39,201 nucleotides of DNA, from positions 1 through 39,201 of the forward strand of contig JBAYJA010000003.1 of assembly GCA_041665345.1 (NCBI GenBank). The letters run 5' to 3'. Positions 5,951 through 34,183 of the stretch are shown piece after piece. The position numbers and the translations under genes were made by a program. The notes below the pieces were generated by a model. That model was not told the DNA's origin and made no database searches. It saw only the letters and a list, made by a program, of their open reading frames with translations. How positions within the stretch are numbered: position 1 is the first letter of the stretch; each line of letters begins with the position of its first letter. Origin of the DNA: Patescibacteria group bacterium. Lineage in GTDB: Bacteria; Patescibacteriota; Patescibacteriia; PEXW01.

Positions 5951-6030
5951 GGATAAAGGAAAAAATAGGGTTTTGGTGTAGCGGCGAGTGGAGTTCATGG
6001 GTGGGGGTGGGGAAGTGTTTTATTAGTCAG

Positions 6031-6114
6031 CCATACCCTCTACCCATACCTTCCTACTATACTCGCTGCCACACCCAAACCTTCTACCTCTCCAATACGG
6101 TATACTACCCGCAT
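6031..6114 (+). promoter_or_regulatory. conserved C-rich upstream element, copy A (shared promoter/leader module abutting an ATG with no SD)
   Basis: ...CCTCTACCCATACC...ATACTCGCTGCCACACCCAAACCTTCTACCTCTCCAATACGGTATACTACCCGCAT|ATG. Near-identical element in inverted orientation at 14943-15035 and a shorter copy at 31035-31097. Contains TATACT (-10-like) 8 nt before the ATG. Confidence 0.6.
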
Positions 6115-8019
6115 ATGCGCACCCGTATCGCTCTCTCCTTCCTTGGTCTTATTGGACTTGCTGTGCTTTGCTGGACGCTCCTGTTAGCAAACGCAAAACT
6201 CCACGCTGGCGTAACGAATGCACTGGATCTTGGTATTTACACCCAGGTGGCATGGCTATCTGGACATGGACATATTTTTGGTTTTACCATCCACCCCCAC
6301 CTCTACCTGGGTGACCATGTTGAATTTTTGTTCGTACTTGCTGCTCTCCCCTTCCGGCTGTTCCCCTGGCCTCTGACACTCGTTGCGCTGCAAGGATTGG
6401 CAGTCGTGGGTGCAGCATTTGCGCTCTACACCTTCTGCTTGCGTGTGGGATTAGCTACCAAGAGTAGCTTGGTTTGGGCAAGCATTTTCCTTCTCAACCC
6501 CTTCACGCTCAACGCGCTTGTTTTCGAGTTCCACGCATTGCTCTTTGCATTACCGTTCGTCTTTCTCGCAGCAATTGCCTACCAGAAAAAAACCTACAAT
6601 ACTTTTTGGCTATGGTTAATCGTCGTCCTCCTTGCGCGGGAAGATGCCAGCATTTTTGTGGCTAGCTTTGCCGTGCTGGGTCTGCTGGAGCGTCGCTCAC
6701 TCCGCTGGTGGCTGTGGCCAGGAATCGTTGCGGTCCTTTGGTTCTTTGGTACCTCACTACTCGCCGGGGCAATCAACGGTGAAGGGTACAAATTCCTGAG
6801 CCTGCTTTCGGGCGAGAGCAGCGCTGGTGGGTCACTTCGTAATATTCTGTTAGTGTTCAACCTTGGCAATGTCCTAGTGCTCATTGCGCTCCTCATAGGA
6901 ATGGTTGGCCTGCCTCTGCTCGCCTGGCGCTGGGCAGTGACGCTGCTCGTACCGTTCTTCGCCCTTGGTTTGGCTGGGTTGCAGGGAGGAGACCTGATTC
7001 TCCAAACCCACTACGCCGTGTTCTTCTTACCTATGCTGTTCTGCAGTGCGGTACTTGGGTGGCACTCCTTCACCTCCCGCCCTCCAAGCTGGGCACATAC
7101 CCTGGGTGAACACCTGCGTCCACTCAGTTGGATAACGCTCGGCGTCGTTTCGGTGTACGGTCTACTAACCTTCGGCCCAACCATTGGGGCAATCCAAGCC
7201 TGGCGAGCTATCACCCCGGCGCAGCAGGCCAAAGGCGCGGCAATGCAAAGTTTGCGCAATGCAACTGCCCCATCCGCGAGCGTCCTGGCTGGCTATGGCA
7301 CGCTGCCGCTGTTCAGCGCAAGGGCGAATATCTACGCCAGCCACTACGCTTTCCTGGGCAAACGGCAGTACAGTGATCAAGACTATCCCCTACCCAGCAA
7401 ACTTGACCTGGCTGTGCTGGATGCTGAAGACTTTGTCACCTACCAAGTCCAGTTTGCAAAAAAACCTTCCCGTGCCACTGACTACCTGACTGGCGTCAAA
7501 CGCTTTACCGACCTGCTTGCCGCACACCAGCTCCGGCTCACCAGCATTGATGACACGCTGCTGACGTTTACCACCCAGGGAACTGACCTCTTCCCACAGG
7601 TGGTAACGCAACGCACACGCGAGCCACTCAGCGGGGTGGAATTCCTCATCCAAACGCCCGCGCCTGCAATCCAAATCGCGGATGGCAAAACAACCCTACC
7701 CATCATCGCCCAAGTTGGAAACCCCTCACTAGCAAATCTCCAACTTGAACTTCGCTGGTTCAATGCTTCTCACCAGCTGCTGGAAACCCGCTACCTGCCG
7801 CTCGGGTACGGATTGTACCCAACTTCTGCCTGGAAAAATACTGACGAAATAACCACCAACTTCACACTCGTGGTCCCAGATGAAGCCGCCTCTGGCGAAC
7901 TGCGGGCGATCATCCCCAGCGGCCACCTGGCTCTCAATGGTTGGCGTGCAGCTGAAGTCAAACTCGACAAAGATACCCAGCAGATTGGTTTGCCAGTAAC
8001 GGTGGAGGTAGAACGTTAA
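6115..8019 (+). CDS. polytopic membrane protein, DUF2079-like (putative membrane glycosyltransferase) with C-terminal extracytoplasmic domain
   Basis: About 10 predicted TM helices in the first ~330 aa; ALDLGIYTQVAW...HPHLYLGDHVEF loop motif reminiscent of DUF2079; C-terminal ~300 aa soluble. The 5' part of the ORF-track call (6001-6114) is the noncoding conserved element. Confidence 0.55.
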   Translation: MRTRIALSFLGLIGLAVLCWTLLLANAKLHAGVTNALDLGIYTQVAWLSGHGHIFGFTIHPHLYLGDHVEFLFVLAALPFRLFPWPLTLVALQGLAVVGAAFALYTFCLRVGLATKSSLVWASIFLLNPFTLNALVFEFHALLFALPFVFLAAIAYQKKTYNTFWLWLIVVLLAREDASIFVASFAVLGLLERRSLRWWLWPGIVAVLWFFGTSLLAGAINGEGYKFLSLLSGESSAGGSLRNILLVFNLGNVLVLIALLIGMVGLPLLAWRWAVTLLVPFFALGLAGLQGGDLILQTHYAVFFLPMLFCSAVLGWHSFTSRPPSWAHTLGEHLRPLSWITLGVVSVYGLLTFGPTIGAIQAWRAITPAQQAKGAAMQSLRNATAPSASVLAGYGTLPLFSARANIYASHYAFLGKRQYSDQDYPLPSKLDLAVLDAEDFVTYQVQFAKKPSRATDYLTGVKRFTDLLAAHQLRLTSIDDTLLTFTTQGTDLFPQVVTQRTREPLSGVEFLIQTPAPAIQIADGKTTLPIIAQVGNPSLANLQLELRWFNASHQLLETRYLPLGYGLYPTSAWKNTDEITTNFTLVVPDEAASGELRAIIPSGHLALNGWRAAEVKLDKDTQQIGLPVTVEVER

Positions 8020-13352: not shown

Positions 13353-14942
13353 TTACTCTGGATTCTGCCAAGAGTAAATCCACACCTCAGCATCTTCGTA
13401 CGCCAGTTCCACACCCGGCGTCACGCGAACATTCTCGTACATCTCCCGATGATCTTTTTCCACAAAAATCCACTTCGTATTAAAGAGGTCAAAGGCTTCA
13501 GCCAGGTTGTCCTTTTTCTGGCCCAGGGTGGTCTGCGCCCAGGCCCAGTAGCGGGTGACATCTTGGCGGTAGAGGAAGGTTGGATCCAGACCGGCGATGT
13601 ACGCGTTTACCGTGTTGTAGTAGAACAGCACGGGAAAATCATCCCAGTCACTGTGGAAGACCACGTCGCCAGGTTTGGAATGCTCTGCCATCCAGGTGGC
13701 CGAGGCTTGAAAGTGAGTAGCATTTACTCCCGAAGAAAGGTTCTGCACATTGGTGCGCTGATCCCGCGCAACCACGTATGGCACGCTGACCACAATGTAC
13801 AGCGCGAGTAGCCCCACCACAATTTTTCGACGCTGCCACTGCTGCCACACGCTCTCCCAGATGTGTCGCCAATCGCTGGTTTTCAGCACATCACCCAGCG
13901 TCACTGCTGCAGCCAAAGCAATGAACGGCACGGCATACTCCACGTACCGCCTAGACTTTAAGGTGACAACGCTGAAGAGCAGTGCGAGGAGCACCAGGGT
14001 CCACCCTTTGGCCGTCGTTCGTCGCAGGTGCACAATGGCCAGCACCAGCGCCAGTAGGAACGGAATGATGACCACCACATTATTCCCAATGAACTCGGTG
14101 AAGCCGTACGGATACCACTCCCCGCCCACGCCAATGACATTTCGGTAGTTCACCACGCCAATTTGGATAACCTGCTCCCACAGAAAATGAAAAGTGTTTG
14201 GGAAAAAAGGGTTTGCCACCATGCCCACCCCGGCGCCAGCCAAAACGCAGCCAAAGACCTGCAGCGGTCGGTAGTGCAGAAATCCCTGCCAGGTCCACCA
14301 GGGTTTCCTCCCCGCTTCCGCTGCTTCCCGTGCCCAATGCCGTACCAGGTCAACGACTGCGTACGCAAGCAATGACAGCCCGGCTGCCGCAATGAGCACC
14401 AGAAAACCGCCGTAGAGCAAGACGAAGAACCACGCCAGAAAAAATGTCAGCCACCGCTTCCCCCGGAAGATGCACCACAGACCAATGAGGAGTGTGGCCA
14501 GAGACAAGCTGGGCGCTTTGGCCAAACTCATCCGAAAGGTGAACGGCGTTGCGGCCAATAGCACTGCTGCCCAAATCCAGGCGTGGCGTACCCCAAAACT
14601 GCGAACAAACCACACCGCAACTGTCAGTAAGAGCGATGCAAAAACTACGGTCGCCAGTTTGATACCAGCCAGTGGATCCATGAGCCGCACAAAGGGAACC
14701 AGCGCAACATGATACAACCAGTGCTGGTCAATGTAGTGCTCGCCCAGCGTGGTGAAGGGCAACCAGGGCAATTCTCGCACCGCACCCTGCTGGCTGGTCA
14801 GCACCGCGATCCGCGCATGGTAGAAGGAGTCAGGATCGGCAAAGACCGCGCTCCGTTGCATCAGGAAAAAAGCAACGAAGCTCACCACAAACGTACCTAG
14901 GAGCATGAGGAGCGTCGTGTGGCTCCGCCAGTGAATAGTCAT
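13353..14942 (-). CDS. polytopic membrane protein, ArnT/PMT-like GT-C glycosyltransferase candidate
   Basis: 530 aa from ATG 14942 (the ORF-track start 15122 includes the noncoding conserved element). First loop FADPDSFYHARIA resembles the PDE.RYAEI loop motif of ArnT/PMT_2-type GT-C enzymes. About 12 TM helices, C-terminal soluble domain. Confidence 0.5.
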   Translation of the reverse strand: MTIHWRSHTTLLMLLGTFVVSFVAFFLMQRSAVFADPDSFYHARIAVLTSQQGAVRELPWLPFTTLGEHYIDQHWLYHVALVPFVRLMDPLAGIKLATVVFASLLLTVAVWFVRSFGVRHAWIWAAVLLAATPFTFRMSLAKAPSLSLATLLIGLWCIFRGKRWLTFFLAWFFVLLYGGFLVLIAAAGLSLLAYAVVDLVRHWAREAAEAGRKPWWTWQGFLHYRPLQVFGCVLAGAGVGMVANPFFPNTFHFLWEQVIQIGVVNYRNVIGVGGEWYPYGFTEFIGNNVVVIIPFLLALVLAIVHLRRTTAKGWTLVLLALLFSVVTLKSRRYVEYAVPFIALAAAVTLGDVLKTSDWRHIWESVWQQWQRRKIVVGLLALYIVVSVPYVVARDQRTNVQNLSSGVNATHFQASATWMAEHSKPGDVVFHSDWDDFPVLFYYNTVNAYIAGLDPTFLYRQDVTRYWAWAQTTLGQKKDNLAEAFDLFNTKWIFVEKDHREMYENVRVTPGVELAYEDAEVWIYSWQNPE

Positions 14943-15035
14943 GTAGGAAGTATACCGTATTGGAGGGGTGGAGGGTTTGGGTGTGGCAGCGAGTATGGTT
15001 AGAGGGTGGCGGTTTAGGATGGGTAGAGGTACGAG
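14943..15035 (-). promoter_or_regulatory. conserved C-rich upstream element, copy B (inverted relative to copy A)
   Basis: Minus-strand reading: ...CCTCTACCCATCC...CCATACTCGCTGCCACACCCAAACCCTCCACCCCTCCAATACGGTATACTTCCTAC|ATG. About 85% identical to copy A over about 70 nt; abuts ATG 14942 with no SD. Confidence 0.6.
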
Positions 15036-15204
15036 TGAAATACAATACTCCTCCCCTCCTTTCGAAGGAGCCGTCTGCGGCGGGTGCGAGCGAGCACAGC
15101 ACCTTAGGTAGGGGGAGGTCACCCTTACCGAGAAAACAAAATCACGCAGAATAAAAGTCTGGAAAAAACAAAAACATATTCTACTTCCTTCTTCTCAATC
15201 CCCT

Positions 15205-16422: not shown

Positions 16423-16520
16423 AGGCCTTTTTCTGTCATCCTGAATCAGATGAAGGATCCCCAGACTATGGATAAACTTCGGAGATTCTTCGTTAGACTC
16501 AGAATGACAATGAGGAGGAG
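16423..16520. repeat. imperfect palindromic ~95-bp structured element, copy 2
   Basis: GGCCTTTTTCTGTCATCCTGAATCAGATGAAGGATCC...CTTCGTTAGACTCAGAATGACAATGAGGAGG. Left arm is about 85-90% identical to 1771-1804; outer stem TGTCATCCTGAATC/GACTCAGAATGACA (12/14 paired). Confidence 0.6.
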
Positions 16521-16647
16521 TTAGGTAGAAGAGGGCGGGATCCCGCCTCAGTGACGGGACGTAACTATCCCCTTCACATAATGGTGTAAAACGGACAACT
16601 ACGTTAAAATAAAGCCGTCATTCATTAGCTAAAGCACGCTTGCATCT

Positions 16648-19600
16648 ATGGAAATCAAGTCAAAATTTCACTTTTTTCGTCAGAACAACTTCACCTACCT
16701 GGACAGCGCCGCCACAACCCAAGTACCGGATGCGGTGACGCGTGTGGTGGAGCAGTCTTTGCAGTACAAAGGCAACCCGAATCGTAGTGCGCACGCCGTA
16801 GCGGAAAAAAATGAACAGGCGTTGCAAGCCGCCCGGGAGAATATTGCCGGCTTCATTGGCGCCACGGCAGAGGAACTCATCTTCACAAATAACACTACGG
16901 ACAGTATCAACCTTGCGGTGGATGGTATTGCCGACCATGTAAAGCCTGGTGACGAAATTGTCATCGCCGTGTCTGAACATCACTCCAACATGCTGCCCTA
17001 CACCAAGCTGGTAAAGCGTGGGGCGAAAATCCGCATCGTAGGCATCAAAGACGGCGTGGTCAATCCAAACGATGTGCAGAAAGCGCTTACGCCCAAAACC
17101 CGTATCGTGGCCGTGGGACACTGCTCCAATGTCCTCGGGAACATCAACGACGTGGTAGCTATTGGCAAACTCGTTAAAAACCACGACAAGAAAATCTTCT
17201 TCATTGTGGATGGCGCGCAAGCCGTGGCGCACATCCCAGTAGACGTCCAGGCAATGCAGGCGGACTTCTACGCGTTCTCGGGCCACAAAATGTACGGGCC
17301 AGATGGCGTAGGTGGATTGTACATTGCCCGAAAAATCCACCACCTGCTCACTCCGACACGTATGGGTGGCGGCACCGTGCAGAATGTGGCCATCACCTTT
17401 GATAAAACTGGTGATATCATCTCCCCTGACTACTTCCCGTCGCTCATCACGTTGGAAGGTGGCACGCCAAACCTGTCCAACATTCTCGGCCTTTCTCGCG
17501 CCGTCAACTTCATTCGTTCTATTGGCTTCCCAGATATTCAGGCACACGAACGCGGGCTGCTAAAACGTTTGCTGGATGGGTTGGCGACAATTCCTGGGGT
17601 GCAGGTCTTTGGTCCCACCGACCTCCAACAAAAAATTGGCGTCCTCTCTTTTGGTTTGCAAGACACGAACACCAAAGAACTCGGCGAACACCTTGGTCGC
17701 CAAAAGATCTGCATTCGCTACGGCGCACATTGTGCCTTCCCGCTAGCGGAAAAGCTGGGCCAAGAAACCCTGCGCATTAGTCTGGGCGTGTACAACACCG
17801 AAGAAGACATTGACCACGTGCTCAACGAAATGCGATTCTTCTTCGATAAGAAACAAGGGCGCATTACCAACCCCAACCTGGAGCCCCTGCGCAACAAGCT
17901 CTACTACCGCAGCACCCATGTGGTGAATTCCTATGCTGCCCTGGCCGAAAAGCTGCAGCAATCCCTCTACGGCCCACAGGATACGGAAATTATTGTCATG
18001 GGTGGCCACTTCTTGGGCATACCAGACATGCAGGAAAACCGCTTCTGGCCCAGCATTGCAACCATGGTACCCGAGCGCCTGCACGGCCTCATGGATGAGT
18101 TTGGCATGACGAGCTTTCCGCTTTTCACGTGGCGCTTGGCTTGTCGGACGGTTGCGGATTTGAAAGCGCACGGATACCAAGCAAAACTGGCAATTATTGC
18201 CAATGACACAACGGGAATGAATGAACTTCGTAACTCTGAAGCCAACACAACAAAGAAAACCGCTGAGCAATACCGAACTGAGTTACTAGATACTTTTCAA
18301 GAAGACGGTCATTTACCAAATCGCTATAGTGAAATTCTCAAAGAGCACGGATTGCATAAGCGAGATATTCTCAAGAATGGTGACAAATTCGTATTTCAAG
18401 AAACCTTACTCCGAGCCAACTTCAAAAAATTTGTTGATGGTAATAAAAATTTCTTTGATGGCATCATTGCCTACACAAAAAAGGCAGAGGAGAATATCGA
18501 CTTATCAATTAAACTCCTCGATAATCAGGAAATTGCTTCCTGCACGTTTAATACATTTCAATCAAAAACTGGTGGGAAGTTTTGCATTGTTGAATTGTGT
18601 CAATTTATTGCCGAACTCTTTGGTAAACCAGAACTGATTACATTCCCCTATGTATCACAGCGCGTACTGAAACCAAAGGTGACAGCAAATCACAAGATTC
18701 TTTTTGCAATCACGCCCGCGATGTGCGACAACGCTGTGACGCGATCCGCGGAACTCTACACCAAGCTTTTCCTCCAGGAGCAGAGTAAAGGATCATTTAA
18801 ATTCTTCAACTTGCCCCTAGGCCCAAATGCTGAGCGCAGCTTAGCTATGGGCGCAGAACTCAAGTATGTCTCAGACAAAGACAATCTTGAGGTACTTGAT
18901 ATTGAGCATGAGCCCGCATTTCCAGATCTCTGGCGCTTGGCTGAGTACAAGCTCATCTACAATGCTCCTGCCTATGTAACTGAAATGACCGCGCTTTTTG
19001 CGAAGCTGGGCCTCACCAAGAAATCCGCACTGCTGGATACCTGTGTGGGTCCAGGCTTCTTTGCCACTGAGCTGTTGCGGCAAGGTTACAATCTGCATAC
19101 CGCAGACAAGAGTGAAACCATGATGGCACCATTCCGCGCAACCCTGAAAGAGCTTGGTATCAACCACCAGCCCACAGTGAGCACGTGGCTTGATTTGCCA
19201 AAACACTTCGAGGCAAATTCCATGGATATGCTCTTCAACCGTGGGAACACCTTCATCTACGCGGCAGGCGGCTGGCATGAGCGAATCACCGTGGACCGAG
19301 AAAAATCTTTGGCGAAATATTTAGAGACGTTACGCGTCTACTACAGCCTTCTCAAGCCAGGTGGCTACCTCTACGTAGATAAATTCCGTGATGCAGAAAT
19401 CCCAGATAAAAAAGTTGTTGCTCGGCTGTACATTCAGGAGCCTGCGCAGCAAAAAGACGTAGTCTTCTACGTCGAACGCAAACCAGAAGATCACATTCGC
19501 TTTGCGCAAATGCTCTTGCGCGACACCCAAGGCAAAGAGACTGGATTACCAAACATGGCCTATGACTTGAGCGTAGAAGAAATGGAAATGTTGCTACAGA

Positions 19601-19677
19601 AAGCTGGGTTCAAGAACGTCCAACAACTCAAGCTCGCACAAGAAAAACACTTCGTCGTCTGGCTAGCCCAGAAATAG
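16648..19677 (+). CDS. 1009-aa multidomain protein: N-terminal SufS-like cysteine desulfurase (class V PLP fold), unknown central module, C-terminal GNMT-like class I SAM methyltransferase
   Basis: aa 1-~400: YLDSAATTQ, PLP-Lys motif FSGHKMYGPDGVGGLY, catalytic-Cys loop RYGAHCAFPL (cf. SufS RTGHHCAQP). aa ~730-1009: LLDTCVGPGFFA (motif I), GNTFIYAAGGW, LLKPGGYLYVDKFRD, resembling glycine/sarcosine N-methyltransferases (NSFxH, LLVIDHRNYD). aa ~400-730 unrecognised. 18230-18660 is an A/T-rich in-frame segment. Confidence 0.8.
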   Translation: MEIKSKFHFFRQNNFTYLDSAATTQVPDAVTRVVEQSLQYKGNPNRSAHAVAEKNEQALQAARENIAGFIGATAEELIFTNNTTDSINLAVDGIADHVKPGDEIVIAVSEHHSNMLPYTKLVKRGAKIRIVGIKDGVVNPNDVQKALTPKTRIVAVGHCSNVLGNINDVVAIGKLVKNHDKKIFFIVDGAQAVAHIPVDVQAMQADFYAFSGHKMYGPDGVGGLYIARKIHHLLTPTRMGGGTVQNVAITFDKTGDIISPDYFPSLITLEGGTPNLSNILGLSRAVNFIRSIGFPDIQAHERGLLKRLLDGLATIPGVQVFGPTDLQQKIGVLSFGLQDTNTKELGEHLGRQKICIRYGAHCAFPLAEKLGQETLRISLGVYNTEEDIDHVLNEMRFFFDKKQGRITNPNLEPLRNKLYYRSTHVVNSYAALAEKLQQSLYGPQDTEIIVMGGHFLGIPDMQENRFWPSIATMVPERLHGLMDEFGMTSFPLFTWRLACRTVADLKAHGYQAKLAIIANDTTGMNELRNSEANTTKKTAEQYRTELLDTFQEDGHLPNRYSEILKEHGLHKRDILKNGDKFVFQETLLRANFKKFVDGNKNFFDGIIAYTKKAEENIDLSIKLLDNQEIASCTFNTFQSKTGGKFCIVELCQFIAELFGKPELITFPYVSQRVLKPKVTANHKILFAITPAMCDNAVTRSAELYTKLFLQEQSKGSFKFFNLPLGPNAERSLAMGAELKYVSDKDNLEVLDIEHEPAFPDLWRLAEYKLIYNAPAYVTEMTALFAKLGLTKKSALLDTCVGPGFFATELLRQGYNLHTADKSETMMAPFRATLKELGINHQPTVSTWLDLPKHFEANSMDMLFNRGNTFIYAAGGWHERITVDREKSLAKYLETLRVYYSLLKPGGYLYVDKFRDAEIPDKKVVARLYIQEPAQQKDVVFYVERKPEDHIRFAQMLLRDTQGKETGLPNMAYDLSVEEMEMLLQKAGFKNVQQLKLAQEKHFVVWLAQK

Positions 19678-19685
19678 ACCCAACC

Positions 19686-20531
19686 ATGATGTCTGAAAAA
19701 AATCACGCGCCAAATCAGGACGCGGATAAGGAAAAAACCGAATACAAGACATTCCGCCTAGATCACGAGCCCACGTTTGCGGAGCTGTGGGAGCTGTGCG
19801 TGAATGAGCTGCTCTATAATGCGCCAAAGCATTACGATGAAATTGAGGCACTTTGGGAGCGACAAGGAATAACCAAAGAATCCAAAATTATTGATGTTGC
19901 TGCTGGGAGTGGCTTCCCCGCACTTGGTTTGCTGCAACGAGGGTGGAACATAGACTCCGCTGATGGCTTTACGGATGAGGTGGAACTCTTCAACAAACGT
20001 GCGGAAGAGGCGGGGTTGCCCGAACGCTGCGCCCAAGTGCTATGGGCGGATTTGCTCAAACAGTACCCAAAAGAAGCCTACGACTTCTTACTATGCAGAG
20101 GTAATTCATTCATATACGCGCCGGGGGGTTGGAATGCTGAAGCGCCGATAACCCCGCAGGCTGCACTGGAAGCCTACACCAACACAGCAAAAAACTTCTA
20201 CGATTTGCTCAAACCCGGTGGGCAGATGTACATCGATAAATTCAAAGATACCGAAATCTCGCATAAAGAAACCGTTGCGCGCTTGCAAATTGGTAACGCG
20301 ACCCCAGAAGACCTCATTTTCTGGACCCAACGCTTTTCGGAGCAGCACATTCGCCGTGCGTCCATGATTCGCCGCAAACAGGATGGTACCGAAACTGGCA
20401 CACCGAACATTTCGTATGACCTTACCTTTCCAGAAATGGAAAAGGCATTAACGACGGCTGGTTTTTCCAAGATTGAACAGCAGCAGCTTGAAACAGAAAA
20501 AGTTTTCAACACCTGGATTGCAACAAAGTAA
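19686..20531 (+). CDS. GNMT-like class I SAM-dependent methyltransferase, standalone paralog of the C-terminal domain of the upstream 1009-aa protein
   Basis: 281 aa, co-linear with aa ~730-1009 of the upstream protein: DHEPTFAELWEL/EHEPAFPDLWRL, IDVAAGSGFPA/LDTCVGPGFFA, CRGNSFIYAPGGW/NRGNTFIYAAGGW, LLKPGGQMYIDKFKDTEI/LLKPGGYLYVDKFRDAEI, C-terminal ETEKVFNTWIATK/AQEKHFVVWLAQK. Confidence 0.75.
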   Translation: MMSEKNHAPNQDADKEKTEYKTFRLDHEPTFAELWELCVNELLYNAPKHYDEIEALWERQGITKESKIIDVAAGSGFPALGLLQRGWNIDSADGFTDEVELFNKRAEEAGLPERCAQVLWADLLKQYPKEAYDFLLCRGNSFIYAPGGWNAEAPITPQAALEAYTNTAKNFYDLLKPGGQMYIDKFKDTEISHKETVARLQIGNATPEDLIFWTQRFSEQHIRRASMIRRKQDGTETGTPNISYDLTFPEMEKALTTAGFSKIEQQQLETEKVFNTWIATK

Positions 20532-20565
20532 GTTCGCGGATTGAACGCAGGACGCACTTTTTCAC

Positions 20566-20594
20566 TTGACCTTCACATATTTTTTTAGTATAGT
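20566..20594 (+). promoter_or_regulatory. sigma70-like promoter TTGACC-17 nt-TATAGT upstream of yebC
   Basis: Hexamers at 20566-20571 and 20589-20594 with 17-nt spacer; ATG 20627. Confidence 0.45.
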
Positions 20595-20626
20595 CATCAT
20601 ACTTCCAGGGGGATTTTTTCTGTTGT

Positions 20627-21343
20627 ATGTCTGGACATTCCAAGTGGTCTACTATTAAACGGCAAAAGGGTGTTGCGGATGCCAAGCGCAGCTCAGTCTT
20701 TACCAAACTTGGCAAAGCAATTGTGGTGGCTGCCCGGCTGGGCGGAGCTGACCCGGCTATGAACTTCCGTCTTCGGCTGGCTGTGGAAAAAGCACGCGAG
20801 GCCAGCATGCCCAAAGACAACATTGAGCGAGCCATTGCCAAGGGTAGTGGTACGGCCGAGGGTCAGCAGTTGGAAGAGGTAACCTACGAAGGTTTTGGAC
20901 CTGGTGGCACCGCCATCATCGTGGAAGCGGTGACCGATAACCGCAACCGCACTGTGCATGAGGTAAAAACCTTATTTAGCAAGCACGGCGGTACCATGGG
21001 GAATGAGAATAGTGTACGGTGGCAATTTGACCGACGGGGGGTGCTTCGTATTGCCGCAGAACACCTACCCAAGGATCACGACACCTTTGCACTGCAGATG
21101 ATTGAAGAAGGCGCCGAAGATGTGAAAGATGATCCAGAAGGAATCACTTTGCTGACGCAACCCGAGGCATTGGAAAAAGTGAAAGTCGCGCTTGGGACCA
21201 CCCCTGTGGCATCTGCGGACATTGAATTCGTGCCCAAAACTCCCCTCCCTCTTTCTCCGGCGGACGCGGAGAAGCTGCACACGCTCACCGGCATTCTTGA
21301 AGACCACGCTGATGTCACCAACGTCTGGACGAACGGTGCGTAG
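20627..21343 (+). CDS. yebC: YebC/PmpR-family transcriptional regulatory protein
   Basis: MSGHSKWSTIKRQKG...FTKLGKAI...AR.GGADP..N..LR.A...A...MPKDNIERAI...G, full-length 238 aa. Confidence 0.9.
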   Translation: MSGHSKWSTIKRQKGVADAKRSSVFTKLGKAIVVAARLGGADPAMNFRLRLAVEKAREASMPKDNIERAIAKGSGTAEGQQLEEVTYEGFGPGGTAIIVEAVTDNRNRTVHEVKTLFSKHGGTMGNENSVRWQFDRRGVLRIAAEHLPKDHDTFALQMIEEGAEDVKDDPEGITLLTQPEALEKVKVALGTTPVASADIEFVPKTPLPLSPADAEKLHTLTGILEDHADVTNVWTNGA

Positions 21344-21842: not shown

Positions 21843-23098
21843 AACGCATCGCCCTCATCAACGTGCACTGCGATCCACTCGAAAGCCTTGGATCCGCAGA
21901 AGCCGGCGGTCAAAATGTCTACGTCCAGCACCTTGCTAAGGCACTTGGCAAACGCGGTTACTATGTGGATGTCTTTTCCCGGCTCAACTCTCGCTCCAAA
22001 AAGGAACGCGTCCGGGTTTCCAAGCACGTGCAATTCATCCGCCTCGTCGCTGGCCACCGGCAGTTCATCCCCAAGAATAAACTGGGGCCACTGCTGCCTG
22101 AATTCATTAGCAACTTCCTGGCCTGGCAGAAACGTGAGGGTGTGCGGTACGACCTGCTGCACTCACACTACTGGGAGGCGGGCTGGGTAACCATGCAGCT
22201 GAAGTACATACTCAAAGTCCCACAGGTCCACACCTTCCACAGCTTGGGCATCATGCGCTACAACGCGCTGAAAGGATTTCGGGAGCAGAGCCTGGATACC
22301 ACGGAAATGAAGAAGCGTATTGCCATTGAAAAAGAAATTACGGAAAAAGCTGAGTGCATTCTGAGCACTAGCCCGTACGAACGTGAGTACCTGGAGAAGC
22401 ACTATGCTGCAAAATCTGAGAACATTCGCGTTGTCCCTTGTGGCGTGGATTTGCAACGCTTCCGACCCATTGACCGAAATGAGGCACGAAAAAAAATTAA
22501 TGCGCCAAACGGCGACAACCTTATTCTCTACACTGGTCGCATTGAGTGGCGCAAGGGCATTGGCACCCTGGCCATTGGCGTCGCTAAACTCTTCAAGCAC
22601 CACCCAGAGCTGCGAGGAAAAACCTGGCTGTACATTGTCGGCGGCAACCTGGGCCGCCGGGCAGAGCCCGAAGTCCGGGAGGAAATCAAACGACTGAAAG
22701 ATGTGTGCCGAGAGTATGGGATACGTGATCGCACCGTATTTACCGGCGCCGTGCAGCAAGAAAAACTCCACTTCTACTACTCAGCGGCAAACGTCTGCGT
22801 CATCCCCTCCTACTACGAGCCTTTTGGCATGGTGCCGTTGGAAGCCATGGCCTGCAAAGTGCCGGTGATCGCCTCTGATACCGGTGGCCTGCCGTACACG
22901 GTTCGGAATATGAAGAGCGGGATTTTAGTCCCCGTTCGCAACCCGGGTGCCATCGCCCATCGCTTAGCCGACGTCCTGACCAAGCGCGAGCTGGCAGAGA
23001 AACTGGTGCGAGGAGGCCGGGAACTTGCAAAGACCACCTTTAGCTGGCGGCTGATTGCGAAGGGCGTCGCCGAGGTGTACGAACGGCTGGTGAAGTAA
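21839..23098 (+). CDS. GT4 glycosyltransferase, sucrose-phosphate-synthase-like (SPS/MshA-type GGQNVYV family)
   Basis: N-terminal MKRIALINVHCDPLESLGSAEAGGQNVYVQHLAKALGKRGYYVDVFSR (SPS/MshA-type signature); C-terminal GT-B E-x7-E region YEPFGMVPLEAMA; 419 aa, like minimal cyanobacterial SPS. Start overlaps the ruvC stop (ATGA). Confidence 0.7.
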   Translation: MKRIALINVHCDPLESLGSAEAGGQNVYVQHLAKALGKRGYYVDVFSRLNSRSKKERVRVSKHVQFIRLVAGHRQFIPKNKLGPLLPEFISNFLAWQKREGVRYDLLHSHYWEAGWVTMQLKYILKVPQVHTFHSLGIMRYNALKGFREQSLDTTEMKKRIAIEKEITEKAECILSTSPYEREYLEKHYAAKSENIRVVPCGVDLQRFRPIDRNEARKKINAPNGDNLILYTGRIEWRKGIGTLAIGVAKLFKHHPELRGKTWLYIVGGNLGRRAEPEVREEIKRLKDVCREYGIRDRTVFTGAVQQEKLHFYYSAANVCVIPSYYEPFGMVPLEAMACKVPVIASDTGGLPYTVRNMKSGILVPVRNPGAIAHRLADVLTKRELAEKLVRGGRELAKTTFSWRLIAKGVAEVYERLVK

Positions 23099-23175: not shown

Positions 23176-23943
23176 ATGGATGACCATCCAACTCCTTCAA
23201 CGATTAATTTTTCCCTTACTCTTCCGCTCTATAACGAGGGGAGTATTCTGCAAAAAAATTTAACTTCTATCCACACAATTTTATCTGGGAAAGGGTCATT
23301 TTCCTTCGAAGTTATCGTTATTGATGATGCTAGTAAAGACGACACAGCTCGCAGCGCAAAACAGTTTTGTGACCATCTACCAAATTGGCATTTCCTGCAA
23401 AATGAAAAAAATCTTGGCCGGGGTGGTACGGTAATGCGGGGTTTTCGTGAATCACGGGGAACGATCGTTGGCTTTATTGACGTCGACTGCGAAGCTTCGC
23501 CAATGTACCTGTTGGATTTCATTCCGGATTTACTCGCACATAAAGTTGATGGGATTACCGGCATGCGCATATACCCATTTTCATTTTCAACATTCCTTCG
23601 CGCTGGGACAAGCTACCTCTATCGCCAACTTGTGCAACTATTTTTACGCGTAGCGTACAAGGACAGGCAATCTGGGTATAAAACATTTCGTCGGGAAGCA
23701 ATTTTACCACTCCTAGCGTACACAAAAAATCAGCATTGGTTTTGGGACACGGAGATTATGGTCATTGCACACCTGGCTGGTTTACGTATTGAGGAAAGGC
23801 CCATTTTGTTCTACCGTGACACTGCAAAAAAATCTACGGTGAAACTCTTTCGAGACAGTATGCTGATGGTGAGGGAACTCTTTCGCTTTCGAGCACGTAT
23901 GCCGCAACTTGCGGCTGACTTAGCCGAACGCACGAACCGCTAA
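23176..23943 (+). CDS. GT2 glycosyltransferase (polyprenyl-phosphate sugar transferase, DPM1/GtrB-like)
   Basis: LTLPLYNEGSIL, VIVIDDASKDDT (DxD-type nucleotide-sugar-binding acidic motif), second acidic motif IDVDCE; 255 aa. Visibly more A/T-rich than the flanking genes. Confidence 0.8.
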   Translation: MDDHPTPSTINFSLTLPLYNEGSILQKNLTSIHTILSGKGSFSFEVIVIDDASKDDTARSAKQFCDHLPNWHFLQNEKNLGRGGTVMRGFRESRGTIVGFIDVDCEASPMYLLDFIPDLLAHKVDGITGMRIYPFSFSTFLRAGTSYLYRQLVQLFLRVAYKDRQSGYKTFRREAILPLLAYTKNQHWFWDTEIMVIAHLAGLRIEERPILFYRDTAKKSTVKLFRDSMLMVRELFRFRARMPQLAADLAERTNR

Positions 23944-24691: not shown

Positions 24692-25585
24692 ATGCATATC
24701 GCCATGTTTGGGGGGACAGGATACGTTGGGAGTGCTTTGCGCGCACATTTGGCTAGCCAACGTATTCGAGTGAGTGTTTTTTCACCCCACTCCCCTAGCC
24801 CACTCTACCCTCTGGAAACCCACGTGGTTGCCGACCCATGGTCTGCCAGAATTGAACCCGGGGTATTTACGCATATCCTTGACTTCTACGGCGTATCTGG
24901 AGATGCGGCCTGTGCTCGGAATCCGCAGGAGGCAGCGTATAGAAACGTAGACTCGGTTCGTGCGCTCATGCATGCAGCGGCGGGTACAGGCATTGATAGA
25001 TTCGTCTATGTCTCTACTGCTTCAGTGTTTGATGATGGTGTCCAGAAAACGGGGAATGAATTTTTTGAAAACGATGTGCCTCGTCCTGCAACAGTGTACG
25101 GCGATACAAAGCGAATTGCGGAAAATCTACTCCTATCACAAGAAAAGGTACCCTGCACAATTATTCGCCATCCAACAATCTATGGCCTATCGCCGTGCAT
25201 GCGATGGGACACATTGATGCAATTTTGCGTTCAGCAAGCAAAAAAAGAGGGGGTGGTGCGCATGTTTGGGGATGGGAGTGCGTTTCGCCCCCTCGCCGCG
25301 TTGTCACACGTTGTTGCTGGATACGCACATGTGCTACATTCTCCCCCACCTTCACAGTCTTGCTTCCACATTGTTTCTGAGAATGAGCCAATTCGTAACT
25401 ACCTAGAGAGAATCCAGCAGGTTGCCAAGGAATGTGGGCAGCGTATTAGCGTGGAAACGGTAGAGCAGTCCTACGTCCCAAGCTATCGGGTGCACAGTTC
25501 TTTCCCCTATACCAACCGACCAGAGTATTCTTTCGAGCTCCTTCAAGCTATTTGGAAAGCGGCGGTCGGTCGCAATCACCTGTAG
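24692..25585 (+). CDS. NAD-dependent epimerase/dehydratase (SDR family)
   Basis: Start at ATG 24692 with SD AAGGAAGTGAGG. N-terminal GGTGYVGS Rossmann motif, catalytic YGDTK (YxxxK). The ORF-track 5' extension to 24362 overlaps the methyltransferase and is rejected. Confidence 0.8.
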   Translation: MHIAMFGGTGYVGSALRAHLASQRIRVSVFSPHSPSPLYPLETHVVADPWSARIEPGVFTHILDFYGVSGDAACARNPQEAAYRNVDSVRALMHAAAGTGIDRFVYVSTASVFDDGVQKTGNEFFENDVPRPATVYGDTKRIAENLLLSQEKVPCTIIRHPTIYGLSPCMRWDTLMQFCVQQAKKEGVVRMFGDGSAFRPLAALSHVVAGYAHVLHSPPPSQSCFHIVSENEPIRNYLERIQQVAKECGQRISVETVEQSYVPSYRVHSSFPYTNRPEYSFELLQAIWKAAVGRNHL

Positions 25586-25646
25586 CTGGCGCTTGATTGC
25601 CAAAGGCGTGGCCGAAGTGTACGAACGAATGGTGGAGAAAAAATAA
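25576..25646 (+). pseudogene. relic 3'-end fragment of an SPS-like GT4 gene (duplicate of 23034-23098)
   Basis: CACCTGTAGCTGGCGCTTGATTGCCAAAGGCGTGGCCGAAGTGTACGAACGAATGGTGGAG...TAA is about 80% identical to the last about 65 nt of the GT4 at 21839..23098 (..SWRLIAKGVAEVYERLVK*). It would encode SWRLIAKGVAEVYERMVEKK*. The epimerase stop TAG lies inside it. Confidence 0.6.
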
Positions 25647-26785: not shown

Positions 26786-27835
26786 ATGAAGAAGCTCCGG
26801 ATTGCGCAGCTGGTTCCGTTTGAAGAAACTGTCCCTCCCACCAAGTACGGCGGCACAGAGCTCGTCGCAGCAAACCTCTGCGATGGGTTGGTGAAACAAG
26901 GACATGACGTCACCCTCTTCTCCGTGGGCGGTTCCAAGACCAAGGCCAAGTTGGTGAAGATTTTTCCCGGCTCACTTCGCGCCATGACTGGCACCGACGT
27001 GAAGCAACGAGAATCTTTGAAGTACATGGGCGTGGGCAAGGTGCTCACCGCGGTGGCGGCTGGAAAATTCGACATTGTCCACAACCACATTGGCTGGCGC
27101 GTGCTGCCCTTCACCGGCATGATCCCCCACCCTGTGGTCACCACGCTCCACGGACCCTTGGACATTGGCTACCAGCAAATGGTGTACAAGCCCTACAGCC
27201 ACACCCCGTTCGTTTCCATATCCAACAACCAGCGCAAACCCCTGAAGCTCAACTACGCGGCCACCGTGTACAACGGTATTCATGTGGAAAAGTTTGCCTA
27301 CCTGGAGAAGAAGGATGACTACCTGGCGTTTTTGGGCCGCATGAGCCCAGAGAAAGGTCCGGTGCAGGCCATCCAGGTGGCAAGGAAAACTAAACGTCGT
27401 TTGATAATGGCCGCGAAAGTGGATGCGGTGGATGTGAAGTTCTTCACCGAGAAGGTGAAACCGCTCATTGACGGCAAGCAAATCAAATTCTTGGGTGAAG
27501 TGGATCACGTTGGAAAATCCAAACTCCTGTCCCGCGCTGCAGGCTTGCTGGCGCTCATCCAGTGGGAAGAGCCCTTTGGCCTCTTCATGGCAGAGGCTAA
27601 TGCCTGCGGCACGCCGGTCATTGCCATGGCACGGGGAGCCGCGCCTGAGGTGATTGCCCACAAGCAGACTGGCTTCCTGGTGCACTCCAATGACGAAGCG
27701 GCGCGCATGGTGAGCAAGCTGGGAACAATTAGACCCGCGGCCTGCCGAAAACGAGCGGAGCAGTACTTTTCCGTGGAAGCAATGGTCGCTGGGTACCTGG
27801 CGGTGTACCAAAAGCTCATCCGGCAGTGGCGGTAA
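26786..27835 (+). CDS. GT4 glycosyltransferase (small, ~350 aa), paralog a
   Basis: N-terminal KKLRIAQLVPFEETVPPTKYGGTELVAANL..GH.VTLF; C-terminal GT-B motif WEEPFGLFMAEANACGTPVIA (E-x7-E). Paralogous to 28827..29885 and 29882..30922. Confidence 0.8.
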   Translation: MKKLRIAQLVPFEETVPPTKYGGTELVAANLCDGLVKQGHDVTLFSVGGSKTKAKLVKIFPGSLRAMTGTDVKQRESLKYMGVGKVLTAVAAGKFDIVHNHIGWRVLPFTGMIPHPVVTTLHGPLDIGYQQMVYKPYSHTPFVSISNNQRKPLKLNYAATVYNGIHVEKFAYLEKKDDYLAFLGRMSPEKGPVQAIQVARKTKRRLIMAAKVDAVDVKFFTEKVKPLIDGKQIKFLGEVDHVGKSKLLSRAAGLLALIQWEEPFGLFMAEANACGTPVIAMARGAAPEVIAHKQTGFLVHSNDEAARMVSKLGTIRPAACRKRAEQYFSVEAMVAGYLAVYQKLIRQWR

Positions 27836-28830
27836 ATCCACATATGACTCGGACCGCCCTCCTGAAGCACGTTCGCGGCCTCCTGCAGAAACGCGGGTTA
27901 ACCCCAGATGCCGATGTGAAAGAAATGCTCAACCACCAGCGACGGTTTTTTCGTACGCGCTGCGTGGATGCAAAGGGCCGGGCCTACACCTTCAAGGTGT
28001 ACCTCATGCGCGTGCCAACCACGCGGCACGACTTCCAGCACGAAATTGCTTTCTACCACTTCACGGCCAAAGCGCGGCTGAACCAATTTCCTCGCTGGGT
28101 GGAAGGAAATCGAACCGGAGCACACCCCTGGATTCTCTACCACTACATACCCGGCGAGCTCTTCACGGCGTACCTCCGCAAACATCGGAACCACGTTCCA
28201 CCAAAGCTCATCGCCAACCTCAGCCACATGCTGGCACACTACGGCCAGCTGCCCATTCCTCTGGCTACACGCCGGCTCCTCCACCTCCAAGCACACCGCG
28301 CCAGTGACTTTACTGCCCGCTTTCGAACCTACGCTCGGGGGAAAAACGGCCAGACACTTCGGACGTACCTCAGTGATGCTGAGCTTGAAGTTGCTGCACG
28401 CATTGTGGCGTTCCACCAGCTCGAACGGCATACCCGGCACCAATTAGGCATTAGCCACGGCGACTTAAGTACAAATAACCTCCTCGTGGATCAGGGACGC
28501 TTTGCGGTACTAGACTGGGAGCATATTCAAATTGCCTCCCCGGCGTACGACGTGGCGGAACTCTGGGTCAAAGAATTCAGCCGCGCACCCTGGCGGAACC
28601 GGCTGGTAAAAAAAGTTGCTGACCTGCAGCCAGACCACGCTGCCTTTAGCGCGCTCTTCGCCATTGAGGTACTACTTTTCTGCCTCCGGGATATTCTCCT
28701 CCACCACCGCATCCTCTCGGAGCTGCACCACACCAAGAATAAAGTGATTGTCCGTAAACTCTTACGCTACTACGTTCGCACATTCCGCGCCGGGCTGCAT
28801 GGCTTTTCCTCGCTTATGAAAAATGCATGA
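27826..28830 (+). CDS. APH/choline-kinase-family phosphotransferase (putative sugar or small-molecule kinase)
   Basis: Brenner catalytic motif ISHGDLSTNNLLVD and downstream LDWEH (DxE metal-binding). 334 aa; overlaps the upstream GT4 stop by 10 nt and the downstream GT4 start by 4 nt. Confidence 0.65.
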   Translation: MAVNPHMTRTALLKHVRGLLQKRGLTPDADVKEMLNHQRRFFRTRCVDAKGRAYTFKVYLMRVPTTRHDFQHEIAFYHFTAKARLNQFPRWVEGNRTGAHPWILYHYIPGELFTAYLRKHRNHVPPKLIANLSHMLAHYGQLPIPLATRRLLHLQAHRASDFTARFRTYARGKNGQTLRTYLSDAELEVAARIVAFHQLERHTRHQLGISHGDLSTNNLLVDQGRFAVLDWEHIQIASPAYDVAELWVKEFSRAPWRNRLVKKVADLQPDHAAFSALFAIEVLLFCLRDILLHHRILSELHHTKNKVIVRKLLRYYVRTFRAGLHGFSSLMKNA

Positions 28831-29885
28831 ACAAATCTCGCAGACTCCGCATTGCCCAAGTTGCTCCCCTGGCTGAACGCGTTCCACCCCGCAAGTACGG
28901 CGGTACCGAATTGGTCATTGCAAATTTGGTGCAAGGCTTGGTCAAGCGCGGACACAGCGTGACACTCTTCGCGCGGTCCGATTCCGACACGCCTGCAAAG
29001 CTGGTTCCCGCCTACCACCCTGACCCGCGCGCGACCAACCGCAGCCGTATTCGGGGCTACAGCGTACCAGCCTTTTGGCAAATGCTGCAGTACGGCCATG
29101 TCTTTGAGCACGCCAACGATTTTGACATCATCCACATGCACGTGGGATCGAGTAGCTTCCCTTACACCCGGCTGGTACAAACGCCGTGCGTGCTCACGCT
29201 GCATGGCCGTTTGAACACGAGTGAAGCGAAAATTGTGCACCAAGCCTACCCAGAAATTCCCCTGGTCTCCATTTCTAACAACCAGCGTGAACCGCTCCCC
29301 AAACTGAACTTCATTCGCACCGTGTACAATGGCATTGACGTTGCCAAATTCCGCTACAACGACCGCCCCAAAAAGTACCTAGCATTCCTGGGTCGGATGA
29401 GCCCAGAGAAGGGCCCAGTAGAAGCAATGCAGGCGGCAAAGAAAGCGGGCTTACCTTTGGTCATGGCCGCAAAAGTGGACACCGTGGATGAAGCGTACTT
29501 CATGAAGAAAGTCCGACCGTTCATTGATGGGAAGCGGGTGATCTTCCTTGGTGAAGTAAACCATGCAAAAAAGGTGGATCTCCTCCGTAATGCCTTGGGT
29601 TTGCTGGCGCTCATCCAGTGGGAAGAACCTTTTGGCTTGTTCATGACCGAAGCCATGGCCTGCGGCACACCAGTGATTGCCACCCGCCGGGGCGCCGTGC
29701 CAGAAATTGTGGTGGATGGGAAAACGGGGTTCATTGTTGCCTCCGTTGCCGGGGCAGCTAAGGCAATTGCCAAGCTGCAGACCATTGATCGTGCGGCCTG
29801 CCGGGCACGAGTGGAAAAAGGCTTCTCCCTTGATACAATGGTAGATGGGTACCTCGCGGCCTATGCCAAACTCCTGAAAAAATGA
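28827..29885 (+). CDS. GT4 glycosyltransferase (small), paralog b
   Basis: RLRIAQVAPLAERVPPRKYGGTELVIANL...GHSVTLF; WEEPFGLFMTEAMACGTPVIA; closely related to 26786..27835 (same blocks throughout). Confidence 0.8.
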   Translation: MNKSRRLRIAQVAPLAERVPPRKYGGTELVIANLVQGLVKRGHSVTLFARSDSDTPAKLVPAYHPDPRATNRSRIRGYSVPAFWQMLQYGHVFEHANDFDIIHMHVGSSSFPYTRLVQTPCVLTLHGRLNTSEAKIVHQAYPEIPLVSISNNQREPLPKLNFIRTVYNGIDVAKFRYNDRPKKYLAFLGRMSPEKGPVEAMQAAKKAGLPLVMAAKVDTVDEAYFMKKVRPFIDGKRVIFLGEVNHAKKVDLLRNALGLLALIQWEEPFGLFMTEAMACGTPVIATRRGAVPEIVVDGKTGFIVASVAGAAKAIAKLQTIDRAACRARVEKGFSLDTMVDGYLAAYAKLLKK

Positions 29886-30922
29886 AGAAACCAAAGATAG
29901 CTATCCTCGCCTCCAACCTCTTCCCCATTCCGCCGCAGCGTACGGCCGCGGCTGAGCTTATTGTCTCCCAAATTACCGAAGGGCTTGTGAAACGTGGCTT
30001 TCCGGTGACGCTCTACGCTGCCGGTGATACCAAAACCAAAGCGCGCTTGGTTGCCGCCACCCCCCGCGCCTCCATCCGTGAGCCCAAGATTGGCATGGAA
30101 AACCACAAGGCCTACGAGCTCATCCAAACCAGCAATGCCTACCGAGATGCCACGCGCTGGGGCGCCAACGTCCTGCTCTCCCACGTGCCCATGATGAGCG
30201 CGCACTTCTCCCCGTTCGCCCCTTTTCCATCCACTGCGCTCCTGCACAGTCCGCCAACTTTCACGGACCAAGCGGTCATGCGAACCTACAGCAAGACGCA
30301 GAGCTACATTGCCATTTCCAAAGCGCAGCGCAACTTGGCGCCTGGCGCACGTTTCATTCAGACCATTCAGCACGGCGTGGATCTACACAAACTCCCCTTC
30401 CACCCCAAGCCCGGCACGTACCTGGCCTTCCTGGGTCGCATCCGCAACTACAAAGGCGTACATGAGGCTATTACCGTGGCGCATCGGCTCAACCTACCTT
30501 TACGCATTGCCGGCCCCATTGGCGACCCCGTGTACTTTGCCCAACAAGTGAAGCCCTACCTCAACAGCCGCATCCGGTACATTGGTGAAATTACCCACCG
30601 AGAGAAAGGCGCCTTCTTGGGCAATGCCCTGGCCACACTCTTCCCCATTTCGTGGGATGAACCCTTTGGCTTGGTGCTCATTGAATCATTGGCCGTGGGC
30701 ACACCCGTGGTGGCATTCAAGCGTGGCTCGGTCCCAGAAATTCTCAAGGATGGGAAAACTGGTTTCATTGTCAAAAATACTGCAGCCATGGCGCAAGCAG
30801 TCCGGCACATCGACGCAATTGACCGAGCGGTCTGCCGCAAAGACATGGAAAAACGTTTCAGCCTTGACCGCATGGTGGATGACTATGCTGCTTTACTTAC
30901 ACGTCTAGCCGCCGGTAAGTAG
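29882..30922 (+). CDS. GT4 glycosyltransferase (small), paralog c (more divergent)
   Basis: KIAILASNLFPIPPQRTAAAELIVSQITEGLVKRGFPVTLYA; WDEPFGLVLIESLAVGTPVVA; start overlaps the upstream stop (ATGA). Confidence 0.75.
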   Translation: MKKPKIAILASNLFPIPPQRTAAAELIVSQITEGLVKRGFPVTLYAAGDTKTKARLVAATPRASIREPKIGMENHKAYELIQTSNAYRDATRWGANVLLSHVPMMSAHFSPFAPFPSTALLHSPPTFTDQAVMRTYSKTQSYIAISKAQRNLAPGARFIQTIQHGVDLHKLPFHPKPGTYLAFLGRIRNYKGVHEAITVAHRLNLPLRIAGPIGDPVYFAQQVKPYLNSRIRYIGEITHREKGAFLGNALATLFPISWDEPFGLVLIESLAVGTPVVAFKRGSVPEILKDGKTGFIVKNTAAMAQAVRHIDAIDRAVCRKDMEKRFSLDRMVDDYAALLTRLAAGK

Positions 30923-31034
30923 AACAAGGAACTCGGAACCGAGAACAGAGAACCAGAATGGGAAAAAGCAGGAGTGAACCTCCCCTCTGGTTCCAAGTTC
31001 ATTGTTCTCAGTTCAAAGTTCCCTTCCAAAGTAG

Positions 31035-31097
31035 CCATCCAACCATACCTTTCAACGATACTCGCTGCCACAACCAAACCCTCACCCCTTTGCAACT
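31035..31097 (+). promoter_or_regulatory. conserved C-rich upstream element, copy C (core only)
   Basis: CCATCCAACCATACCTTTCAACGATACTCGCTGCCACAACCAAACCCTCACCCCTTTGCAACT|ATG. Shares the ATACTCGCTGCCACA(C/A)CCAAACC(C/T)TC(T/C/A)ACC core with copies A and B but lacks the CCAATACGGTATACT proximal module; no SD. Confidence 0.5.
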
Positions 31098-33949: not shown

Positions 33950-34183
33950 AAAATTTACTTATTGAGTACATCATGATACTACCTACTGATAGTTTACACT
34001 AAGTTCATACTTGCTAAATTGGAGCCGCCCACCAACAAGGGCAGATGTATACCATTGAATCGTTACCAGAAAAGCAAATGTTAGCCAAAAAGCATCCTAC
34101 TCAATCAGGGCTACAAAATTTAGTGGGTATTTGCCTACAGCTTTACGGCTTATAGCCTTTGGCGTCCTTGCTATACTACCCCC

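Follow-up and report, generated by a model that had tools for sequence, protein, structure and literature searches.

Mosaic genes formed by recombination between species are exemplified by penA in Neisseria and pbp in Streptococcus pneumoniae (PMC10926701, PMC3241670). These genes appear to be the closest known analogues of a gene that we analysed in a genome labelled "Patescibacteria group bacterium" at NCBI (assembly GCA_041665345.1, contig JBAYJA010000003.1, positions 1 to 39,201; this whole stretch of 39,201 nucleotides is called the window below). The gene encodes a three-domain fusion protein, and an internal part of it, the low-GC island, departs sharply from the rest in base composition. 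As in penA and pbp, an internal block seems to have been swapped in frame for the homologous block of a diverged allele, which would leave a sharp block of altered composition and divergence in a native gene. The cases differ in degree: donor and recipient of the mosaic penA and pbp genes differ at ~5-25% of their nucleotides, whereas the difference implied here is ~40%, with a GC content at third codon positions (GC3) of 0.34 versus 0.62. Furthermore, the donors have been identified and the selective agent is known for penA and pbp, and neither holds for the window gene. The gene and its island are located as follows.

16648-19677, plus strand: fusion gene, an open reading frame (ORF) of 1009 aa, with a SufS-like pyridoxal phosphate (PLP) domain, a central module resembling class I aminoacyl-tRNA synthetases (aaRS) and an S-adenosylmethionine (SAM) methyltransferase domain
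18178-18708, plus strand: low-GC island, codons 511-687, ~530 bp, GC content 0.37 and GC3 0.345, from a change-point fit with a shuffle null

A preliminary description of this DNA had reported an A/T-rich, in-frame compositional island at 18230-18660, within a gene of otherwise host-like composition, and had quoted part of its translation; both the peptide and the reading frame were correct. Indeed, this interval has a GC content of 0.367, compared with a window mean of 0.527 (SD 0.044 in 430-bp windows), and is the lowest-GC stretch of its size across the whole 39 kb. The GC3 profile falls from 0.63-0.75 upstream to 0.30-0.40 within the segment; a profile of this kind had been proposed as a check, and the deviation at the segment is significant. 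The limits of the island were determined by a two-breakpoint likelihood fit on third codon positions, which gave a GC3 of 0.345 inside and 0.624 outside, with twice the log-likelihood difference at 46.2. This is beyond the codon-shuffle null (n=200), in which the same statistic was 12.6 ± 3.6 with a maximum of 28.6. The edges are sharp, the transition occurring within about 20 codons, and the support intervals of 2 log-likelihood units span codons 496-516 on the left (18133-18195) and codons 665-690 on the right (18640-18717). The interval first proposed is therefore low in GC but too narrow, the fitted island being ~100 bp wider.

Outside the island the gene is host-like, with a GC3 of 0.62 compared with a mean of 0.61 ± 0.08 in the other window genes (27 ORFs taken as genes); the lowest 177-codon stretch in any of these ORFs has a GC3 of 0.39. 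The shift in the island is synonymous, because it is also seen where the amino acid is conserved: counting only residues with at least 90% conservation among the orthologues, the island has a GC3 of 0.30 and the rest of the gene one of 0.66 (Fisher p = 6e-6). This rules out amino-acid composition as the sole cause of the island. The shift can be read from individual codon pairs, with counts in the island versus the rest of the gene of 10/4 versus 13/29 for TTT/TTC, 10/3 versus 13/27 for AAT/AAC, 7/2 versus 5/23 for ACA/ACC, and 1/5 versus 32/14 for GGC/GGT. For codon usage as a whole, the log-likelihood ratio of the island is -0.063 per codon, meaning that pooled low-GC orthologues (n=9) fit it better than the host does, compared with +0.273 ± 0.127 (minimum +0.009) for 177-codon windows of the other window genes. 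Both the GC content (0.37) and the GC3 (0.345) of the island lie inside the range of low-GC orthologues; in the closest of all orthologues (L010, 70% identical), the segment has values of 0.37 and 0.41-0.42, respectively.

The island is probably a homologous replacement patch that came from an unsampled low-GC relative among the Patescibacteria, making the gene a mosaic produced by partial horizontal transfer. About 530 bp of the resident fusion gene would have been replaced in frame, residue for residue, by the equivalent stretch of a diverged copy. The donor would have been a low-GC relative of roughly 35-40% GC, most likely from another Patescibacteria lineage. Low-GC donors are plentiful, since nearly all members of the fusion family reside in genomes of 27-47% GC. 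Foreign origin, as suggested in the preliminary description, is thus the best-supported explanation, but the inserted foreign domain envisaged there is not, given how the segment is built in the orthologues.

The orthologues came from 26 loci in a scan of species genomes and 46 loci in a scan of JGI metagenomes, reduced to 59 non-redundant sequences with enough coverage. The segment is colinear in 59/59 of them and shows no indel, which was the outcome of the orthologue alignment that had been proposed to reveal one. Likewise, structure prediction did not return a discrete inserted domain: the segment was modelled as part of the central fold, with a predicted local distance difference test score (pLDDT) mostly >90. 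In this model the island spans a strand with IIANDTT, a helical and hairpin excursion, the SKTGG loop and a strand with TPAMC. It holds 9 of the 13 invariant residues of the central module (N519, Y560, E585, N599, C632, G642, G643, C646 and G659), and no flanking repeats were found around it. A newly inserted foreign domain, or the fast-evolving Lys/Asn/Phe-rich linker that had been offered as the alternative, might explain the A/T richness, and F, Y, M, I, N and K are indeed somewhat enriched relative to the flanks in all family members. Yet the GC3 shift persists at conserved residues. Because the segment is colinear in all orthologues, rich in invariant, catalytic-looking residues, confidently folded and free of flanking repeats, the island cannot be regarded as an inserted domain or as a linker, and we consider both readings extremely improbable. 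It would instead be a like-for-like replacement of the resident segment.

An explanation without transfer is that the cause lies in situ, in that a constraint at the DNA or RNA level would keep a native segment A/T-rich, or would have shielded it from a rise in GC elsewhere. Such a constraint might be weak mRNA structure, a need to translate slowly while the central module folds, or a protein-binding region. Consistent with this, the total GC content of the segment is slightly lower than that of the flanks in most orthologues (by ~0.03-0.06 across the family), owing to its richness in F, Y, M, I, N and K. In contrast, no other orthologue has a comparable dip in GC3: the difference between segment and flanks lies between -0.14 and +0.11 for the 59 orthologues and is -0.30 in the window gene, so the GC3 anomaly is specific to the window lineage. 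The two high-GC orthologues, L007 (locus GC 0.57) and L073 (0.54), both have a segment GC3 of 0.70, showing that the protein does not demand A/T-rich codons. The preliminary description had named a shared segment of shared composition in unrelated genomes as the objection to its reading; the orthologues do have the segment, but not its relative composition, and the anomaly stands. Also against an in situ cause, the island has sharp edges and no promoter excess, Rfam match, DnaA box, second copy in the window or conserved overlapping ORF. Overall, we regard an in situ cause as unlikely.

Several specific candidates were rejected individually. For an internal promoter or terminator there was no excess, with 4 promoter-like sites compared with 4.0 expected, and no known RNA family was matched in Rfam at E <= 1. 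An overlapping gene in frame +2 (18290-18637) would be open for 115 codons; the corresponding frame has a median of 41 and a maximum of 115 codons in the orthologues, and because of this median and of its junk-like peptide the opening is probably due to chance. The variable region of a diversity-generating retroelement was discarded since no copy of the island, as a template repeat, was present elsewhere in the 39-kb window. A replication origin or unwinding element was dismissed in view of the lack of any DnaA-box-like site in 16475-20782 and of a skew turn. Finally, a phage-borne donor was rejected, as the viral contigs searched contained no relatives.

The protein sequence of the island is more diverged than its flanks lead one to expect. 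Segment identity was 0.617 in pairs that include the window gene, compared with 0.692 ± 0.038 in other pairs with a flank identity of 0.70-0.75, an excess divergence of ~2 SD. The island distance from the window gene to its nearest clade (0.363) exceeds that from this clade to the next one (0.309), which is mostly not so in the flanks. In sliding windows, the distances to the two nearby clades were both raised by 25-40% across aa 521-640, while the same measure stayed mostly at ~0.8-1.2 elsewhere in the protein and showed a lesser rise immediately past the island. If an ancestral low-GC segment had simply been kept, one form of an in situ cause, the segment should be closer than expected to low-GC relatives. 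The opposite was observed, and this over-divergence argues against plain retention of the ancestral low-GC state.

Phylogenetic placement, for which neighbour-joining trees were used throughout, was also less well supported in the island. In flank trees, the window gene was sister to L010/L011/L036 in 99/100 bootstraps. The same sister position was recovered in 62/200 replicates of the island, compared with 145/200 size-matched resamples of the flanks, and a basal position of the window gene was found in 52/200 island replicates versus 18/200 size-matched resamples.

Under homologous replacement, the crossovers would probably have fallen in or next to two locally conserved motifs, IIANDTTGxNELR and TPAMCxNAV, which in the window gene are represented by the following candidates.

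18184-18231, plus strand: conserved motif KLAIIANDTTGMNELR at the left edge, codons 513-528, candidate left crossover, from the codon alignment, lying in a top-15% conserved block
18712-18738, plus strand: conserved motif TPAMCDNAV just past the right edge, candidate right crossover

The left motif borders the left support interval (codons 496-516) and shares some codons with it; over 20 nt its sequence is identical to that of orthologue L010 (ATTATTGCCAATGACACAAC). TPAMCDNAV begins at codon 689, one codon before the end of the right support interval (codon 690). None of the invariant residues is lost in the patch, and the enzyme is therefore predicted to stay functional. Since the GC3 of the patch has not drifted to the host value of ~0.6, the event may have been fairly recent, or the donor even lower in GC. 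As to how donor DNA might have entered, natural competence and DNA integration through homologous recombination have been shown for cultivated Saccharibacteria, which belong to the Patescibacteria (PMC10633639). DNA uptake is thus plausible in the window lineage, and, as with penA and pbp, natural transformation would be a candidate route.

Several observations weigh against homologous replacement. In the island trees, L010 was still the nearest neighbour (132/200 bootstraps), so that the island has lost support and gained branch length without taking up a well-supported alternative position. The nearest neighbour hence belongs to the same clade as that of the flanks, which speaks for an in situ cause, and none of the orthologues approaches the window gene more closely, in relative terms, in the island than in its flanks. 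Nor was a donor found, another point in favour of an in situ cause: island identity was <=66% (L010) in a 5.8-billion-protein index, 185,579 species genomes, JGI metagenomes and viral contigs, and a donor search with the central module gave nothing above 70% identity. Close relatives at 80-95% identity, in which the allele that preceded the event might be seen, were not found; the searches returned the same population (100% protein identity, 0-3 single-nucleotide polymorphisms), and the next relative was at 70%. The coincidence of edges and motifs is suggestive rather than proven because the breakpoints are resolved to ~10-13 codons. Finally, a donor with ~35% GC3 and a recipient with ~62% would share just ~55-60% nucleotide identity, which is very low for RecA-type recombination; such an event would therefore have to be infrequent and to rely on short conserved blocks as anchors.

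The position of the edges also bears on whether the island is an assembly artefact, in which reads of a co-occurring low-GC relative were joined at the two conserved motifs to give a chimera. The sequence comes from metagenome-assembled genomes, and it is at conserved motifs that graph-based assemblers can cross between related genomes. However, an identical island was present in four assemblies: the window itself; L001, a 176-kb MEGAHIT-style contig from ENA with 1 mismatch to the window in 23,030 nt; L002, a Logan contig from run SRR6484324 with 0 mismatches in 6,902 nt; and L082, from a second NCBI genome (GCA_041660445.1) with 3 mismatches in 12,574 nt. The longest exact junction match to an orthologue was 20 nt, and the k-mers typical of such assemblies are longer than this. 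Furthermore, two in-frame crossovers would be needed, and no second, low-GC copy of the gene was detected among the contigs retrieved from these assemblies. Because a double in-frame join would have to recur in independent assemblies, we consider a chimera very unlikely.

We further characterised the protein in which the replacement would have taken place. Its NCBI record (MFA6474182.1) is annotated as 'aminotransferase class V-fold PLP-dependent enzyme [Patescibacteria group bacterium]', and its parts and the gene that follows it are given below.

16693-17817, plus strand: SufS-like cysteine desulfurase domain, aa 16-390, from Pfam, TIGR01979 and motifs in the translation
17833-18987, plus strand: central module, aa 396-780, with a class I aaRS-like Rossmann (HUP) fold
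18562-18585, plus strand: nearly invariant SKTGGKFC loop inside the island, from orthologue alignments
18988-19677, plus strand: C-terminal class I SAM methyltransferase domain, aa ~781-1009, with Pfam methyltransferase matches over aa 782-993
19686-20531, plus strand: paralogous methyltransferase gene downstream of the fusion, from profile matches and tblastn against the fetched loci

The N-terminal domain has a class V aminotransferase fold (Pfam Aminotran_5, PF00266, E 1e-105). Its score against TIGR01979 (SufS) was 343 bits, under the curated cut-off of 475, and both the PLP-lysine motif SGHK and the catalytic-cysteine motif GAHCA can be read in its translation. The central ~385 aa and their standalone homologues gave no sequence match in Pfam, NCBIfam or PDB. 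The preliminary description had called this module unknown, which no longer applies, since its fold was recognised by structural similarity: it is a remote class I aaRS-like (HUP Rossmann) domain according to its predicted model. It has a Rossmann-type fold like that of class I aaRS catalytic domains, and its best structural matches were aminoacyl-tRNA synthetases, not PP-loop ATPases. Its nearest described counterparts are the class I aaRS catalytic domain and relatives of it that do not charge tRNA, namely MshC, BshC and the cyclodipeptide synthases. The sole look-alikes of the HIGH and KMSKS signatures are GHF (G453, H454) after the first strand and SKTGGK (aa 639-644), and the SKTGGKFC loop tentatively resembles a KMSKS-type loop in its residues. 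Outside the island, the invariant residues of the module are G453, H454, P690 and C693 (full-protein numbering), and three of its invariant residues are cysteines.

In sulfur-relay thiolation, a cysteine desulfurase works together with an ATP-using enzyme of the HUP fold, for example IscS or YrvO with MnmA, ThiI or TtuA. In its domain arrangement, the fusion resembles these pairs, in that a putative SufS-like persulfide donor is set beside a HUP-fold domain with invariant cysteines. Unlike them, it lacks the PP-loop SGGxDS motif and is structurally nearest to aminoacyl-tRNA synthetases. By the logic of its domains, the central module may carry out an ATP-dependent activation, with sulfur supplied by the SufS-like domain and methylation as the last step.

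A word index of 5.8 billion proteins held just 7 homologues of the fusion, and no description of a SufS-like/aaRS-like/methyltransferase fusion family was found in the literature. The family was found only in metagenome-assembled genomes of the candidate phyla radiation (CPR) and of DPANN archaea. By record title, the former comprise Paceibacterota, Saccharibacteria, Andersenbacteria, Falkowbacteria, Vogelbacteria, Peregrinibacteria and Peribacteria among the Patescibacteria/CPR, and the latter Nanoarchaeota and Woesearchaeota, with a few loci carrying doubtful bin labels. Most loci encode the three-domain fusion of ~1010 aa. At ~20 related loci, a separate paralogous methyltransferase gene lies downstream, mostly directly adjacent (tblastn). 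Of the genes that flank the fusion in the window, phosphoglucose isomerase, the 589-aa ORF (13353-15122), YebC and glycosyltransferase family 4 (GT4) were examined and were not beside the fusion in related loci, and no copy of the fusion gene was found in viral contigs. As a separate observation, the fusion family (17833-18987 in the window, and loci L010-L081), with its frequent downstream methyltransferase gene and unconserved neighbours, looks like a mobile two-gene cassette common to both domains of life.

The patch would take in the SKTGG loop together with the second core strand and the helical and hairpin excursion of what appears to be an undescribed class I aaRS-like adenylating domain, in an enzyme that may thiolate and then methylate its substrate. 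The patch could therefore be a functional sub-domain swap that perhaps altered substrate specificity, although we consider this rather doubtful. If so, competent Patescibacteria would exchange sub-genic modules between alleles that are ~55-60% identical in nucleotides. If the island is a true recombination product, it would put on record sub-genic exchange between very divergent lineages of Patescibacteria, in which recombination is hard to study as almost no members are cultivated, and a GC anomaly at the level of single genes could flag mosaic alleles in metagenome-assembled genomes. The kind of event would be ordinary, and the larger value lies in the uncharacterised fusion family confined to CPR and DPANN, whose newly recognised aaRS-like module offers a biochemically testable lead.

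Other parts of the window showed further features. A glycosyltransferase family 2 (GT2) gene at 23176-23943 has a GC content of 0.45 and a GC3 of 0.43 over its whole length, compared with the host mean of 0.61, and may have been acquired horizontally as a whole gene. The final 64 nt of an MshA-like GT4 gene, including its stop codon (23035-23098), are repeated 2.5 kb downstream at 25577-25640 with 83% identity. Between these copies lie the GT2, a methyltransferase and an epimerase gene, an arrangement that looks like a cassette inserted into the GT4 gene at its 3' end, with duplication of that end. A 640-aa ORF on the minus strand (32027-33949) has a GC content of 0.46 and a GC3 of 0.50, below its neighbours, and among 2-kb intervals, 32001-34000 has the second-lowest GC content (0.459).

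DnaA-box-like 9-mers (TTATCCACA, <=1 mismatch) occur 15 times in the window, compared with 6.1 ± 2.5 expected, a number reached in 0/100 shuffles; they are scattered and unclustered, with none in the island. Stretches of ~50-78 nt that are 81-84% identical were found at 6036-6114, 14941-15018 (inverted) and 31035-31088, at the 5' ends of three different genes: 6001-8019 (plus strand), 13353-15122 (minus strand) and an ORF from near 30958 (plus strand). Their sequence suggests a common N-terminal signal or membrane anchor. Finally, three tandem GT4 glycosyltransferase genes at 26786-30922 share blocks that are 60-77% identical at a spacing of 2056 nt, indicating a paralogous expansion.

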